A program made the position numbers and the translations under genes. Source: Vectrevirus T147P9. From it: a stretch of DNA of 44,649 bases. The stretch lies in sequence record OZ035774.1. One strand, 5' to 3'. Shown one piece after another: positions 4,333 to 44,491 of this stretch. The notes beneath the pieces were generated by a model, which saw nothing but the letters and a program-made list of their open reading frames with translations, searched no databases and was not told the origin of the DNA. Every line of letters begins with the position of its first letter. Positions within the stretch are counted from its first letter, which is position 1.

Positions 4333-4356
4333 ATTTACTGGACACTATAGAAGAGG
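4333..4356 (+). promoter_or_regulatory. phage RNAP promoter (consensus copy)
   Basis: atttactggacactatagaagagg upstream of the first tailspike gene. Confidence 0.75.
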
Positions 4357-4434
4357 TAAGATAGCGCCGTTCTTTTGAGCGGCCTATTACTAGCCAATCT
4401 TCATGGTGAGGGTTGGAAAGTAATAGGAGGTTTA

Positions 4435-6327
4435 ATGGCAAGATTAACTCGCCCTGTTAGTGTATTTAATAGTCTGATGGATATTACTTACCCATGCTCC
4501 ACTGATGGTGGTAAAGCGGAACTACTACAGGTTATACCCGGACGTATGTCTGGTGGTGGTATCCTACTTTGGGACGCCAGTATGCCTCAGTCCAATCATA
4601 ATGGTATTACCATCCTCAGCCCTGAAGCTAAATGGGATGGTACTCTAGAAGGTTTTAAGGCCTATAGGGAAAGTGGAGGGACTGGCAATGGTTGCTGGGT
4701 TCGACCACGCAAAGGTACTGATCTGATGGCATCTTGGGCTGGTGTTGACACAGACGGGGACTGGATTGCGGATGAGCCACTTATGGCGCTGTGTCAGATT
4801 GCACATACACAACGTCGTAATATACGCATAGACTCTGGTGCTGTCATTCGTTGCGGTTTCACAACTCCGATTTTTCAGCAAGACAAGCACAACATTCTAT
4901 CTCAAACATCTTTTGTATTACGTGGTTTAAAGAACTTCTCCATATATGCTGAGCAAGATGCAGAGATAATCACAGACCACCCTGTACATCGTGAGCGTAC
5001 AGTATTCTTCTTGGACGGTTGCGATAAGGTTACAATTTCTGGTCTTAAGTTTAATTCTGATTTCAGCGATTATTCTTTCGAACCTAATAGTCCCTATGAG
5101 CACCATATCAATGAACACTGGTTAGGTGTAGTTGCAGAGGCTTGTGGTACTGTTGAGGTTCGCAGATGTATGTTCAATGCACCTCAGTTTGCTGTAAAGG
5201 CCGACTGTTTTAATAGAACAGACGGTAGGTGGAATGACACAGTTGCAGTAAAAGATTGTTTCTTCCAGTATGCTACAAACTATTGCTTTTTATCACGTAA
5301 GTTACGACATTACATCTTCTCTGATAATGAAGTAAGATTTAATGGACGTAAGTGGCATACATATGGAGAGGCTTGTGCTCCTACTACCTATACTGAGAAT
5401 CAGATTATCACTCGTAACCGTTTCATAGATCAGATTGCTGGTCAAAGCTGTATAACTCCTGGTTCTTATGCTAAGCAAGTACTTATTTCAGATAACTTCT
5501 GTCAACGTAGTAATGGTATCTTTGTTGAGATAGGCAGTGCTAGTAATATTAATATTCTTAACAACGTCTCCAAATCTACAGGTGAACGCATCGTCCACGG
5601 AAGTGATAAGTATGCAGGAACTACACACATCCTTCTAGTATCTGGGGCAGTTGATGATGAACCTGCTGGTGGGCTAAGTAATATCTTGATTCAAGGTAAT
5701 AACTTCCAAGGCGGTGGTTATGCTTTACAAGAGTACAATACAGGCATCCCTATTCGTCGCGGGTTGGATATTCTTAATAACCACCTTGTAGACTGTATTC
5801 CACCAGCCTGTACTAACCAATCCTTTAAGTATATTAGGGTAGAAGGTAACTACATCCAAGCACCGGATGATTACCCAGATATGGCTATTGCAGGTCAACA
5901 CCCTATTATCAAGGATAATGTCCTTATCGGTGTGCGATTGAGGGCTAGAGATTTAGGTTATACTGTTGTAGGGTTAAAAGTAATAGGTAATACTTTTACT
6001 GCAAATAGTGTAGCATCTAAGTTCCCTGCACTGATAGACTACACTGATCTAGAAGATCTTGAAGCTTATGACAACGCAGCAGGTATTCAGGCATCTTATG
6101 ATAGCTTTATAGTAGCACCTGATAACTGTAATAAAATTAGCTTTATGAAAGTCGGTATGGTTGAAGGTTTTACACAGACACCAGCAGTGGTTTATGGTAG
6201 TAAGTTGCAAGAACAGAAGGCAGGTGCGATTATTGGCAATAGTGCACCTGGGTCTGTACATGGTTGTGCTGCATTCGTGAGTACTTCTAGTGGTGGTTGG
6301 GGTTTTATAAACTACGTTCCCGCATAA
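4435..6327 (+). CDS. tailspike protein 1 (putative capsule depolymerase with beta-helix-like repeats)
   Basis: About 630 aa; ATG 4435 after AGGAGG RBS; repetitive segments (ISGLKFNS, ILNNVSKS, IQGNNFQGGG, RVEGNYIQ, IGNTFTANS) suggest a parallel beta-helix; right-end position as in K1-5/SP6 tailspikes. Track start 4375 lacks an RBS. Confidence 0.65.
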   Translation: MARLTRPVSVFNSLMDITYPCSTDGGKAELLQVIPGRMSGGGILLWDASMPQSNHNGITILSPEAKWDGTLEGFKAYRESGGTGNGCWVRPRKGTDLMASWAGVDTDGDWIADEPLMALCQIAHTQRRNIRIDSGAVIRCGFTTPIFQQDKHNILSQTSFVLRGLKNFSIYAEQDAEIITDHPVHRERTVFFLDGCDKVTISGLKFNSDFSDYSFEPNSPYEHHINEHWLGVVAEACGTVEVRRCMFNAPQFAVKADCFNRTDGRWNDTVAVKDCFFQYATNYCFLSRKLRHYIFSDNEVRFNGRKWHTYGEACAPTTYTENQIITRNRFIDQIAGQSCITPGSYAKQVLISDNFCQRSNGIFVEIGSASNINILNNVSKSTGERIVHGSDKYAGTTHILLVSGAVDDEPAGGLSNILIQGNNFQGGGYALQEYNTGIPIRRGLDILNNHLVDCIPPACTNQSFKYIRVEGNYIQAPDDYPDMAIAGQHPIIKDNVLIGVRLRARDLGYTVVGLKVIGNTFTANSVASKFPALIDYTDLEDLEAYDNAAGIQASYDSFIVAPDNCNKISFMKVGMVEGFTQTPAVVYGSKLQEQKAGAIIGNSAPGSVHGCAAFVSTSSGGWGFINYVPA

Positions 6328-6412
6328 TCACAAGGCAGTGCGTAAGCACTGCTTTTCACGCAACTTTTCTTAAAGGTTATCATGGTGGTAGCCTTTCAGA
6401 AAAGGAGGTTAC

Positions 6413-8125
6413 ATGCTTCAAAGATTAAGTGCTTACTTGGTGAAGTACAAGAGTAAACTAACAGGTACTATTGAGCGCCTGCTATCTGATAAACTATCGG
6501 ATACAATAGATGTTGCGGATTTTGGAGTTAATCCATCTTCTAATGACAACAGGCAAGCCCTTCAAGCTGCATTCAATGCGGTCAGATTTCTAGGCGGAGG
6601 TACTGTATCAGTCACTAAAGCTGGCGAATATAAACTCAGTGGTACTGTTGAGATATTTGCTAATACACACTTCAAGGTTGCTAAAGGTGTAACATTTGTA
6701 CGTGACTACGAAACAGGAGATACGCTATTCAGATTATCACAAGGGCAAGCTAGTAATGTAACAGTCAGTGGAGGTGTCTATGAAGGCAATGGTCACATTA
6801 AAGGAGATACACCTTTTGTAGTATTTGCATCTACTAGTAATAATGATTTGAAGTTTGAAGGCATAACAGTTAACAATGTAGTGGACTACCACGCCATAGA
6901 TTTAGCAGATTGGAACAACGTAGTTATTCGTGATTGTAAGTTCCTAGGGTTTAAGAATACAGGCAGTCGTAACTTCTCAGAGGCTATACAGTTAGACCCA
7001 GGACTTATTACAGTAGGTCGCTATGTGCAGTCTAGTGGTTTACTGGTAGAGAATTGCTATGCTGGCCCAAACCTTGATTCTGGATTTGGCGGGTATGGTG
7101 CTCTAGTAGGAAATCATGCATCAGCTTATGGTGTTCAAGATAACAACATTAGAATCCTAAATTGCACTACAGATGGTGCACTCTTTGCAGGTGTACGTGT
7201 ATTCAACTGGAAAAACTGGATAGTACGTGGTTGCACATTTAGAAACTCTAATGCAAGAGGTGTTCATGTTACACCTGTCTCCTCTCAAACTAAACCGCAA
7301 GGAACCCGACAAGGTAGTGTTGTAGATTGTACTTTTGATGGCGTAAGAACACCAGTGCTAATTGCTGCACCATCTTGGCCTTTTACCGATATTAGTGACA
7401 TTTGGCATGACCATATTGAAATTTCTAATAATACTATGATCCTCACAGAGGATGTATCCTATGGTGTAGATGCAAGGTGGTGTAAGAATTTAATTGTAAA
7501 AGGTAATACAGGCTCTGGTGGCTTAGGGTTAATCGGTTTACGCTTTGGGACAAAATACCACATCGAAGGTAATACTTGGGAAAATGGAAGAGGTAGTGGG
7601 ATTTGGTTAGGTGAGTCTGATGCTACTACATTCATTGGTACTGGCTTATCGGGCGAAGGTATACTTAGTCGTAATATCCTCTCTAAATTAGGGCAATATG
7701 GTATTCATGTAAACTGCAAGGTTGGCGGTCTAGTGATTAAGGCTAATAATATGAAGGAAGTATCTACAGCTGAAGCAGGTAGGCACTTCATTAGCATAGA
7801 CACAGGAGCTAACAACATCCTAGTAGAAGGTAATATTGGAGTAGATGGAGAAAGCCCTAACAAGCCAAGCCTTGGTATTCGTGTTACTTCTTCTTGCTCC
7901 AATATTAAACTAATTGGCAATGATTGCTATGGTACACAGGCGCCTCAGAATAACCAAGGAGTCGGTTCTAGTACGGTGATTGTTTATGGACTAAATGGCA
8001 ATCCTACAACTTTAGGCGTAGGTGCACCTGTAGGCTCTTTAGCAACTGATATCAATGGGTCTGGTGGTGGTACATTGTACGTTAAAGAATCTGGTACATC
8101 TGCTCAAGGTTGGGTTGCAAAGTAG
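6413..8125 (+). CDS. tailspike protein 2 (pectate-lyase-superfamily-like depolymerase)
   Basis: 570 aa; AAGGAGG RBS 6402-6408; N-terminal VADFGVNPSSNDNRQALQAAFNAV...GGGTVSVTKAGEYKLSGTV resembles the pectate-lyase-3 opening of phage depolymerases, followed by Gly/Asn-rich beta-helix-like repeats. Confidence 0.7.
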   Translation: MLQRLSAYLVKYKSKLTGTIERLLSDKLSDTIDVADFGVNPSSNDNRQALQAAFNAVRFLGGGTVSVTKAGEYKLSGTVEIFANTHFKVAKGVTFVRDYETGDTLFRLSQGQASNVTVSGGVYEGNGHIKGDTPFVVFASTSNNDLKFEGITVNNVVDYHAIDLADWNNVVIRDCKFLGFKNTGSRNFSEAIQLDPGLITVGRYVQSSGLLVENCYAGPNLDSGFGGYGALVGNHASAYGVQDNNIRILNCTTDGALFAGVRVFNWKNWIVRGCTFRNSNARGVHVTPVSSQTKPQGTRQGSVVDCTFDGVRTPVLIAAPSWPFTDISDIWHDHIEISNNTMILTEDVSYGVDARWCKNLIVKGNTGSGGLGLIGLRFGTKYHIEGNTWENGRGSGIWLGESDATTFIGTGLSGEGILSRNILSKLGQYGIHVNCKVGGLVIKANNMKEVSTAEAGRHFISIDTGANNILVEGNIGVDGESPNKPSLGIRVTSSCSNIKLIGNDCYGTQAPQNNQGVGSSTVIVYGLNGNPTTLGVGAPVGSLATDINGSGGGTLYVKESGTSAQGWVAK

Positions 8126-8134
8126 TAGGATTGC

Positions 8135-8284
8135 ATGCCAATAATCAAATCAGTTAAGCAAAGTGCTGTACGCCAGAACACAGAAGAGCTTATTCAATCA
8201 GGCCGTGACCCTAAGCAAGCTTATGCCATTGCCAAGGGTGTACAACGTCGTGCCTTGAAGAAACCTTCTGCATCTTCTGCGTAA
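8135..8284 (+). CDS. hypothetical small basic protein (last gene before the genome-end region)
   Basis: 49-aa ORF MPIIKSVKQSAVRQNTEELIQSGRDPKQAYAIAKGVQRRALKKPSASSA; weak RBS; not in track. Confidence 0.3.
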   Translation: MPIIKSVKQSAVRQNTEELIQSGRDPKQAYAIAKGVQRRALKKPSASSA

Positions 8285-43200: not shown

Positions 43201-43529
43201 GGTTGGCTTTTGGTGCTATGGGTATGATGAGTACAACTGCTGTGTTTAGCTTAGGTGGAGACTTCTTAGGCGGCCTAGGTGTTCTCCCTTCTGAGTTAGT
43301 ACAATCCCGTTATGAGGCTGGCTTTCAGACTAAGGGTTTGATAGACCAAATACCACTAGTAGGTGTTGGTCAAGATGCATATCGTTTAGCAGATTCTATA
43401 ACTAAATATGCAGAGGGTGATACAGAAGGTGTAGATGTGGCACGTAGGGCTTTACGCTTAGTGCCTCTAACTAATGTAATAGGAATCCAGAACGCATTGC
43501 GTTATGGCTTAGATGAACTGGAGGATTGA
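40221..43529 (+). CDS. large internal virion/core protein (gp16-class)
   Basis: 1102-aa ORF after two other internal virion protein genes; Gly/Ala-rich hydrophobic segment near residues 130-200; call by size and synteny. Confidence 0.7.
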   Translation: MEQDINTNWAGYVQSTPEPFSIEAAPVSAPTIRQRNELQEQVLEAKADADILGAVGAAFQNEWLAFGGKRWYDRATADFTPQPDFEIQPEQREALRFKYGTDMMQTITEGVRSEDELNFRIQNADEDLERNKRIAQAGWAGSVATIGAAVLDPVGWVASIPTGGAAKVGLVGRAVRGAIAAGVSNAAIESVLVQGDMTRDLDDIMVALGSGMAMGGVIGAVARGRATKLSEQGDDRAASVVRSADAGDRYVRAVADDSIGAMRVKGEEVLTEGAFDISSKGEDLLKTLQREGNAIDMTPRRWAGTLSALGTVVHSSQDASVRGLGARLFESPQGLGAQKASASLMQNTNLNRLKSADMNRFNDGFDLWLKENNINPVAGHTNSHYVQQYNEKVWEAVRIGMDESTPKSIRMAAEGQQAMYREALALRQRSGEAGFEKVKADDKYMPDIFDSMKARRQFGMHDKEDIIELFSRAYQNGSRKVPKEVADDIARAQVNRVADATLTGQLSFEKAMSGQTKAEYEALMRKAGFSDEEIEKMVEALDNKETRDNISNRAKMSLGLDVTQEYNGIRMRDFMNTNVEELTDNYMKEAAGGAALARQGFSTYQAALSAIDLVERNARNAAKDTKAHAQFEAESAKIRQSEPDYKKAQEKIEELKKRLKLKEKDEAAGLAVDEEIRQMREGLRLIMGKSIDADPQTLSNKMLRRGRDITGVLRLGQMGFAQLGELANFMGEFGIAATTIALGKQFRFTSKALRSGDGFFRDKNLAEVERMVGYIGEDNWLTTKGARPDEFGDVTTVRGMMVHFDQSMNSIRRAQTNLSLFRMAQGSLERMTNRQIALSFIDHLEGKKIIPQKKLEELGLTQGFMTNLQKHYDANSKGSGLLGFDTMPYAMGETLANAIRRKSGLIIQRNFIGDEGIWMNKALGKTFAQLKSFSLVSGEKQFGRGIRHDKIGLAKKTAYGFALGSIVYAAKAYVNSIGREDQDEYLEEKLSPKGLAFGAMGMMSTTAVFSLGGDFLGGLGVLPSELVQSRYEAGFQTKGLIDQIPLVGVGQDAYRLADSITKYAEGDTEGVDVARRALRLVPLTNVIGIQNALRYGLDELED

Positions 43530-44491
43530 TGAGTTATACTTTCACAGAACATATAGCCAACGGTACGCAAGTAACCTATCCCTTTAGCTTTGCTGGTAGG
43601 GATAAAGGTTATCTTCGTGCCTCAGATGTGATAGTGGAATCTCTTCAAGGTAACACTTGGATTGAGGTTACATCTGGCTGGCAATTAACTGGCACGCACC
43701 AGATTACTTTTGATGTAGCACCAGTTGCAGGTTTGAAGTTCCGTATTCGAAGGGAAGTACAAAAGGAATATCCATACGCTGAGTTTGACCGTGGTGTTAC
43801 CTTGGATATGAAGTCTTTAAATGGTTCTTTCATTCATATACTGGAGATTACACAGGAGTTACTTGACGGGTTTTATCCAGAAGGATACTTCATTAAACAG
43901 AATGTAAGCTGGGGCGGCAATAAGATTACTGATTTGGCTGATGGCACAAATCCGGGAGATGCAGTAAATAAAGGGCAGCTTGATGCCATTGACAAGAAGC
44001 ATACAGATTGGAACACCAAACAGGATATTGAGATTGCTGGCCTTAAAGCAGGTATGACTTCTGGTATTGCGCACAGAACTATCCCTTGGTACACGATCGC
44101 CCAAGGAGGTGAGGTTTCCGTAAAACCTCCTTATGAATTTCAAGATGCACTAGTTTTCCTTAATGGGGTCTTGCAACACCAAATCGTAGGCGCATACTCT
44201 ATAAGCAGCAACACTATCACTTTCGCAGAGCCACTTGTGGCTGGCACAGAGGTGTATGTGCTGATTGGCAGTCGTGTGGCTACATCTGAACCTAATATTC
44301 AGTTAGAGTTGAACTTTGACTTAGTAGAAGGCCAACAAGTAGTACAGATTGGCTCTGCATTTAAGTACATTGAGGTCTACCTTGATGGATTATTACAACC
44401 TAAACTTGCTTATCAGGTAGACGGTGTCATTGTTACTTTCTCAGAAAGAGTACCAGAATGCCGGATGACTGCTAAGATTATCACAGCATAA
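43526..44491 (+). CDS. tail fibre adaptor protein (homologue of the T7 gp17 N-terminal tail-attachment domain)
   Basis: 321 aa; TYPFSFAGRDKGYLRASDVIVESL and IRREVQKEYPYAEFDRGVTLDMKSLNGSFIHILEITQE parallel the N-terminus of T7 gp17 but the protein lacks a long fibre shaft. Confidence 0.75.
   Translation: MMSYTFTEHIANGTQVTYPFSFAGRDKGYLRASDVIVESLQGNTWIEVTSGWQLTGTHQITFDVAPVAGLKFRIRREVQKEYPYAEFDRGVTLDMKSLNGSFIHILEITQELLDGFYPEGYFIKQNVSWGGNKITDLADGTNPGDAVNKGQLDAIDKKHTDWNTKQDIEIAGLKAGMTSGIAHRTIPWYTIAQGGEVSVKPPYEFQDALVFLNGVLQHQIVGAYSISSNTITFAEPLVAGTEVYVLIGSRVATSEPNIQLELNFDLVEGQQVVQIGSAFKYIEVYLDGLLQPKLAYQVDGVIVTFSERVPECRMTAKIITA

Follow-up and report, generated by a model that had tools for sequence, protein, structure and literature searches.

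The stretch analysed here (the window; 44,649 nucleotides [nt] of sequence record OZ035774.1) carries at positions 4333-8125 the receptor-binding cassette of a K1-5-like podovirus of the genus Vectrevirus. Its two tandem tailspike genes, called A (gp46 position) and B (gp47 position) below, code for unrelated spikes which would share one adaptor protein. A reading which we regard as fairly likely is that, on this K1-5-like cassette, spike A serves the O6 O-antigen and spike B the K2 capsule of Escherichia coli. An earlier sequence-only reading of this DNA had suggested dual receptor or capsule specificity. Published host-range data support this, except that for one of the two spikes an O-antigen (O6) is a more probable target than a capsule, a situation known from phage SP6. 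The same reading held that the polysaccharide targets cannot be deduced from sequence. This proved too pessimistic, as comparative genomics together with a published host-range matrix yields strong candidates.

In the mechanism that we propose, a late phage promoter would drive both beta-helix tailspike genes. Each spike, presumably a trimer, would use the short peptide at its N-terminus to occupy a separate site on the adaptor. The adaptor in turn would be fixed in the tail by its T7 gp17-like N-terminal domain, so that every tail vertex would carry two different spikes. Spike A would bind, and probably cleave, the E. coli O6 O-antigen; spike B would bind, and probably depolymerise, the K2 group 2 capsule, whose polymer contains glycerol phosphate. 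This would give the phage access to the outer membrane in O6 and in K2 strains alike. We infer the two target assignments, the enzymatic cleavage and the trimer formation from the comparisons described below.

A receptor-binding cassette of the K1-5 type

The features of the cassette and its adaptor are as follows.

4333..4355, + strand: SP6/K1-5-type phage RNA polymerase promoter of the tailspike cassette (exact match to ATTTACTGGACACTATAGAAGAG)
4425..4430, + strand: ribosome-binding site (RBS) AGGAGG of gene A, 4 nt 5' of the ATG at 4435
4435..6327, + strand: gene A, open reading frame (ORF) for the gp46-position tailspike of 630 amino acids (aa); probable O6 O-antigen-specific spike
4435..4455, + strand: docking heptapeptide MARLTRP of A (K1-5 gp46: MAKLTKP), from the translation; role per PMC6872550
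4843..6114, + strand: right-handed beta-helix of A (about residues 137-560), then a small C-terminal beta domain, from the structure model
6335..6352, strand not assigned: intergenic hairpin GCAGTGC-GTAA-GCACTGC followed by TTTT, a weak terminator or RNA-stability element, from the sequence and a scan
6403..6408, + strand: RBS AGGAGG of gene B, 4 nt 5' of the ATG at 6413
6413..8125, + strand: gene B, ORF for the gp47-position tailspike of 570 aa; probable K2 capsule-specific spike
6413..6445, + strand: docking undecapeptide MLQRLSAYLVK of B (K1-5 gp47: MIQRLGSSLVK), from the translation; role per PMC6872550
6599..8002, + strand: right-handed beta-helix of B, formed by about residues 63-530 and including the conserved H160, E190, Q193, D195 and H235, from the model and conserved alignment columns
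8135..8284, + strand: conserved small ORF of 49 aa, counterpart of K1-5 gene 48 (90% identical to YP_654149) and right border of the swappable cassette
43529..44491, + strand: adaptor protein of the gp37 type, 320 aa, predicted from homology to K1-5 gp37 to anchor both spikes to the tail

Both long genes, each with its own RBS, are present on the + strand as had been described. Neither is a fragment of the other, because no similarity is detectable between A and B.

The adaptor is 98% identical to gp37 of K1-5 (314/320 residues). It is a short protein (about 320 aa) with a T7 gp17-like N-terminal tail-binding domain (PF03906, Phage_T7_tail; 27.6 bits at a cut-off of 25.2) and without a receptor-binding domain, and it matches PHROG 2710 (E 4e-147). 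That the gp17-type domain sits on a separate adaptor is borne out by the Pfam search, which found PF03906 on this 320-aa protein and no such N-terminal domain in A or B; the start of the adaptor gene, previously placed at 43526 (43526..44491), has to be moved to the ATG at 43529. Two further Pfam matches of the adaptor, at residues 124-155 and 194-246, are borderline: YadA_stalk (26.5 bits, below the cut-off) and DUF4183 (27.6 bits, above the cut-off). These segments may correspond to the two spike-docking regions.

In K1-5, the heptapeptide MAKLTKP attaches gp46 to the middle of the adaptor, and the undecapeptide MIQRLGSSLVK attaches gp47 to the adaptor's C-terminal part (Leiman 2007 as summarised in PMC6872550). 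The heptapeptide of A is identical to the former at five of seven positions, with two K-to-R changes, and the undecapeptide of B to the latter at seven of eleven, with one I-to-L change. BLASTP similarity between B and K1-5 gp47 covers residues 1-111 (34% identity), and the likeness of B to other gp47 proteins extends past the undecapeptide to about residue 40. The same two peptide types open all gp46/gp47 pairs that were extracted (K1-5, LL11, PSK8, T145P2, DIJ06P1, LF31P3, and LI10P3), and after them the sequences diverge completely. The N-termini of A and B do differ from each other, as had been noted, but they are not novel, because they are the counterparts of the K1-5 gp46 and gp47 docking peptides. 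Gene order and flanks also agree with K1-5, with lysis genes on the 5' side and the gp48-like ORF on the 3' side (gene maps of K1-5, LL11, and PSK8). Adaptor, docking peptides and gene order together support the K1-5 arrangement of two spikes on one adaptor. This architecture is already known, and the cassette is a textbook case of exchange on the K1-5 adaptor.

Receptor-binding proteins are a variable hotspot of Vectrevirus (Gaborieau et al., 10.1101/2023.11.22.567924). Within this genus, the gp46 and gp47 positions recombine independently:

Window phage: A at the gp46 position, B at the gp47 position
LF31P3: A at the gp46 position, a different 727-aa spike at the gp47 position
PSK8: A at the gp46 position, a 507-aa spike at the gp47 position
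LI10P3, KMB47, LL11: K5 lyase at the gp46 position, B at the gp47 position

Spike A is 98.7% identical to the LF31P3 spike and 95.6% identical to a PSK8 'tail fiber protein', and spike B is 97-99% identical to gp47 of LL11, LI10P3, and KMB47. Copies of the A and B modules (95-99% identical) occur in about 20 GenBank phage records, where they are unannotated or called 'hypothetical protein'. The suggestion that the receptor-binding domains may be new is thus correct as far as characterisation is concerned, but not for the sequences themselves. No functional characterisation of the near-identical phages KMB47, LL11, EC120, 101101UKE1, and G9 or of K2- or O6-specific coliphage spikes was found in the literature searched.

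Host range and the proposed O6 and K2 assignments

Host-range data were transcribed by hand from the T147_P10 column of a published 403-strain matrix and from the associated strain trait table (Gaborieau et al., bioRxiv 10.1101/2023.11.22.567924). A matrix score of 1 means clearing at the highest titre only. The window phage is probably T147_P10, a Vectrevirus isolated on E. coli T147, and the host-range figures given here are those of T147_P10. Strain T147 belongs to phylogroup B2 and sequence type (ST) 73 and is O6:H1 with its capsule typed as K5 (Gaborieau et al., 10.1101/2023.11.22.567924).

Among the 43 strains on which T147_P10 is positive, O6 strains are strongly enriched (18/21 O6 strains vs. 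25/380 others; Fisher p 9e-17), also when only scores of at least 2 are counted (16/21 vs. 8/380). The O6 positives belong to ST73, ST127, and phylogroup A ST43, which includes O6:H10 strains without an ABC capsule, and carry K2, K5, K15, CatB or no ABC capsule. Because the capsule types vary or are absent, the O-antigen is the common factor of these strains.

Several phages connect this preference to spike A. LF31_P3, which carries A at 98.7% identity, was isolated on an O6:H1 host. The Kayfunavirus T147_P5 has a single T7-type fibre with a PF03906 anchor and a distal module which is 43% identical to A over 630 aa, and the records listed as matching B do not include this phage. Of the O6 strains it hits 17/21, but of the eight K2 strains that are not O6 (K2-only strains) only one, vs. 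7/8 for T147_P10 (p 0.01). A-like modules are also found in phages from the hosts 536 (O6:K15), CFT073 (O6:K2), and ATCC 25922, the last of which we take to be O6. SHAK7693, with an A-like module at 48% identity, plaques on 8 of 12 uropathogenic E. coli strains, which speaks neither for nor against O6 specificity. Phage phiEB49, which carries an A-like fibre, no longer plates at all on CFT073 derivatives mutated in waaL, wzy, or waaG, but still does so on the K2 capsule mutant (PMC12488582). We thus consider it likely that A is the spike for the O6 O-antigen.

On the K2-only strains, T147_P10 is positive in seven of eight cases, vs. 18/372 others (p 2e-8). Six of these seven positives have a score of 1, and the seventh, ECOR-66 (O4:K2), has a score of 4. 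Independent information comes from LI10_P3 and KMB47, both of which carry the K5 lyase and B. The host of LI10_P3 is O25:H4 with K2, and that of KMB47 is CFT073 (O6:K2). B is the only spike which fits these hosts, because the other one is a K5 lyase and there is no K5 capsule on them. As the two hosts have K2 in common and not the O type, B points to K2, and we lean towards its assignment as the K2 capsule spike.

The low scores on K2-only strains leave room for an alternative which we regard as unlikely, namely that only A, with its O6 specificity, matters and that B is a passenger, acquired by recombination from LI10- or LL11-type phages, which recognises a target other than K2 (e.g., another surface glycan that is common in phylogroup B2) or nothing useful on the tested strains. 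Apart from the K2-only scores being almost all 1, this would fit the sister phages T147_P1 and T147_P7, which carry a B differing by 3-7 residues and are positive on only 1-2 of the eight K2-only strains, and also the isolation host T147, which is typed K5 and not K2. A passenger would not be expected to give the score of 4 on ECOR-66, nor would it explain why LI10_P3 and KMB47, with K5 lyase and B as their only spikes, come from K2 hosts of different O types. In addition, all four T147 vectreviruses hit strain LI10, and the Kayfunavirus that has only the A-like module does not.

The O6 and capsule traits are partly confounded, because O6 and certain group 2 capsules co-occur in ST73 and ST127. 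One could therefore imagine that the assignments are swapped (A for K2, B for O6) or that A recognises a capsule typical of O6 lineages. We consider this very improbable: the hits extend to O6 strains with K2, K5, K15, CatB or no ABC capsule, among them those of phylogroup A ST43; phages with B but without A come from an O25 host; T147_P5, with only the A-like module, hits O6 and not K2-only strains; and phiEB49 with its A-like fibre needs O6 and not K2.

Our preferred reading, with A for O6 and B for K2, has to be weighed against a number of observations. The equation of the window with T147_P10 was made without an exact database match, the identity to the sister phages being 99.3-99.6%. Six of the seven K2-only positives are at score 1, and the near-identical B of T147_P1 and T147_P7 is accompanied by far fewer K2-only hits. 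Three O6 strains are negative with T147_P10. Among K5 strains with neither O6 nor K2, 8 of 17 score 1-2, which neither assignment explains. A-like modules with 43-48% and 31% identity need not have the same specificity as A. Finally, catalytic residues are not established, and PfbA, the closest solved relative of B (see below), is described as an adhesin.

Some further observations concern the same strains and phages. T147_P10 and T147_P9 are positive on 7/8 K2-only strains, vs. 1-2/8 with T147_P1 and T147_P7, and the six additional strains give weak signals. B of the window has I270 and G553, and the corresponding residues in T147_P1, T147_P7, LL11, and LI10P3 are all T270 and S553. These substitutions, or lysate titres, could be behind the gap between the sister phages.

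The eight weakly cleared K5-typed strains (ECOR-11, -50, -51, -55, IAI80, IAI81, NILS25, and NILS27) are cleared to a similar weak degree by all five T147-grown phages (T147_P1, P10, P5, P7, and P9), which belong to two genera. All eight are broadly permissive, with 29-64 infections (at least 50 in seven of them). A factor in the T147 lysates or generic permissiveness could account for this clearing. T205_P4 and T205_P5 do not form plaques on T147, typed K5, though many K5-typed strains score with them, AN17 (O6:K5) with a 4. Possible reasons are an unreliable K5 typing or expression of T147 or a defence system which blocks the two phages. T147_P1, and not T147_P10, has scores of 1-2 on many K1 strains which are lysed by the K1-specific T145_P2 (e.g., ECOR-36, IAI35, IAI46, IAI65, and IAI69); six residues differ between its spike A and that of the window. 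The study PMC5654933 works with a K2 antiserum only and not with a K2 phage.

Fold, relatives and possible activity of the two spikes

Structure prediction returned a right-handed beta-helix for A (predicted local distance difference test [pLDDT] 83) and for B (pLDDT 87), so that both have a central domain of the pectin-lyase-like beta-helix type and the beta-helix-like repeats reported from the sequence are confirmed. A matches PHROG 24092 (tail fiber, E 1e-95). B matches PHROG 2234 (tail spike, E 3.5e-53) and the Pfam domain Beta_helix (37.8 bits). A sequence search of A against solved structures yielded a chance match alone (E 0.16). The Pfam search gave no match to a C-terminal intramolecular chaperone (Peptidase_S74) in either spike, and neither A nor B has an equivalent of the C-terminal segment which is common to K1-5 gp46 and gp47 (33% over 171 aa).

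In a collection of 5.8 billion proteins, 44 relatives of A were found. Apart from one near-identical protein, their identity is 42-65%, with more than 90% of A covered. Salmonella, E. coli, Citrobacter, and Morganella are their sources, and their N-termini are of the P22 head-binding type (PF09008), the CBA120/G7C type (PF18668) or the T7 type (PF03906). Five acidic residues within the helix are invariant in the family (E187, E227, D257, E312, and E365). The recently added Pfam family PF27114 is present in the precomputed annotation of almost all relatives with 42-52% identity (P0003-P0044), and neither in the near-identical cluster (P0001) nor in P0002.

Relatives of B with 45-51% identity have PF09008 or PF18668 anchors. 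Beyond enterobacteria, tblastn with B detected tailspikes of Bacillus phages (SPO1 group) and of Staphylococcus, Streptomyces, and Arthrobacter phages. The alignment with SPO1 gp18.3 extends over 511 residues (25% identity, E 2e-38), and the two proteins have in common the motifs HA(I/L)D, DCKFLGF, SEAIQLD, and GNH, which lie around H160, E190/Q193/D195, and H235. These motifs also align with the pneumococcal protein PfbA, which is the best structural and sequence match of B (template modelling [TM] score 0.71 for the model). The family profile of B aligns with phi29 gp12 at an hhalign probability of 96.8%.

According to the sequence-only reading, B opens with a pectate-lyase-3-like depolymerase motif. 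The stretch in question, DVADFGVNPSSNDN, is below any Pfam threshold on B (no match to Pectate_lyase_3, PF12708, at E <= 0.1), but PF12708 is carried by distant relatives of B (P0053-P0059), and in the profile alignment the stretch is placed on the equivalent motif of phi29 gp12. B would be a degenerate PF12708 relative at best.

Phi29 gp12 acts on wall teichoic acid. The distant kinship of B to tailspikes of Gram-positive phages fits the glycerol-phosphate chemistry of K2. K2-type glycerol-phosphate capsules are said to resemble wall teichoic acids (PMC8262930). B may plausibly be a teichoic-acid-type depolymerase which was recruited for a teichoic-acid-like K2 capsule.

It is also conceivable, though we consider it quite improbable, that one or both spikes are non-enzymatic beta-helix adhesins which hold the glycan without cleaving it. 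The best match of B is the adhesin PfbA, no glycoside hydrolase or lyase family was found at threshold in A or B by Pfam, and the fold matches are generic (10-14% identity). Cleavage rather than mere binding is suggested by the invariant acidic residues inside the helix, i.e., the five listed above for A and E190 and D195, together with H160 and H235, for B, and by the motifs that B has in common with SPO1 gp18.3. Furthermore, the characterised podovirus tailspikes of this fold (those of P22, HK620, and Sf6, the K5 lyase, and the Klebsiella depolymerases) are enzymes.

We only tentatively extend the assignment of A to O6 and of B to K2 to a more specific proposal, which is doubtful in its entirety: B would be the first candidate E. 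coli K2 depolymerase, of the teichoic-acid type, with a conserved H/E/D/H groove and an ancestry in common with SPO1 gp18.3 and phi29 gp12, and its recruitment by a coliphage would be due to the chemical mimicry of wall teichoic acid by K2, a glycosyl-glycerol-phosphate polymer; A would represent the first defined O6 tailspike family, with at least four attachment architectures.

Known systems, significance and genome context

Coliphage K1-5 (gp37 adaptor, K5 lyase gp46, endosialidase gp47; Scholl 2001; Leiman 2007) belongs to the same genus and agrees with the window phage in the adaptor (98%), docking peptides, gene order, late promoter, and gp48. It differs in that the receptor-binding and catalytic parts of the window spikes are unrelated beta-helices without the C-terminal intramolecular chaperone of K1-5 gp46 and gp47, and in the targets, which are K5 and K1 for K1-5 and would be O6 and K2 here. 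The Salmonella phage SP6 (Gebhart 2017; Tu 2017, cited in PMC6872550) also has an adaptor with two spikes, gp46 and gp47, at least one of which is directed against O-antigen. Although it is from another genus and host, it offers the nearest functional parallel to an O-antigen spike on a gp37-type adaptor, likened by function and not by sequence.

The O-antigen-specific beta-helix tailspikes of P22, HK620, Sf6, and CBA120 differ in sequence, with only 10-16% identity to the solved structures, and in attachment, which is by a head-binding domain in place of the short peptide found here. The gp24 protein of phiEB49 and siphovirus fibres from O6 hosts (CFT073, ATCC 25922, and 536) are 31-48% identical to A over about 98% of the module, but they are distant in sequence and part of another virion architecture, and the need for O6 was shown for phage phiEB49, not for gp24 itself. 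SPO1 gp18.3, phi29 gp12, and PfbA align with B, although the host envelope is entirely different.

What is new here are the reasoned assignments of A to O6 and of B to K2 and the link between B and the spikes of Gram-positive phages. In uropathogenic and bloodstream E. coli, O6 (ST73, ST127) and K2 rank with the most frequent surface types, and the modules are of use for phages against urinary-tract E. coli. No characterised O6-specific tailspike was found in the literature that could be searched, and the capsules for which a phage depolymerase is known, as listed in one recent paper, do not include E. coli K2. If the assignments are true, A and B would be ready-made parts for host-range engineering on the K1-5/SP6 scaffold, typing reagents, and anti-virulence enzymes. 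The link of B to Gram-positive phage spikes, if true, would represent a module transfer guided by receptor chemistry and not by host phylogeny.

A megablast search of region 4333-8125 against GenBank phages matched 79 records, nearly all of them Vectrevirus or coliphages. The best matches are OZ035797 (99.6%) and OZ035788 (99.3%), both of which are unannotated 'Vectrevirus T147P1' records. In the KMB47 record OR424385 (3587-5354), the B-type gene is annotated as fragments of 174 nt and 690 nt, with an intact frame from 3684 only, probably because of a frameshift or an error in sequencing close to the docking peptide.

The ORF map of the window comprises terminase, lysis genes, the two long ORFs, early genes, an ORF of the size of an RNA polymerase gene, structural genes, and genes for large internal virion proteins. 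Matches to the SP6/K1-5-type promoter consensus with 0 to 3 mismatches were found eight times in the window, all on the + strand (0 expected in shuffles). The ORF map and the eight promoters identify the window as the full genome, circularly permuted, of an SP6/K1-5-like podovirus. The promoters start at 2658, 4333, 14500, 17023, 22223, 22687, 23833, and 32016; those at 4333 and 23833 are exact.

The true start of gene A is the ATG at 4435, as indicated by the RBS and the MARLTRP opening, and not the TTG at 4375 with which the program-made ORF list begins. In the LL11 record, a terminator is annotated at the place homologous to the 6335-6352 hairpin. A third receptor-binding gene 3' of B was ruled out, as only the conserved 49-aa gp48 is present there. 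This gp48-like ORF (8135-8284) codes for a small, basic protein and lies directly 3' of gene B.

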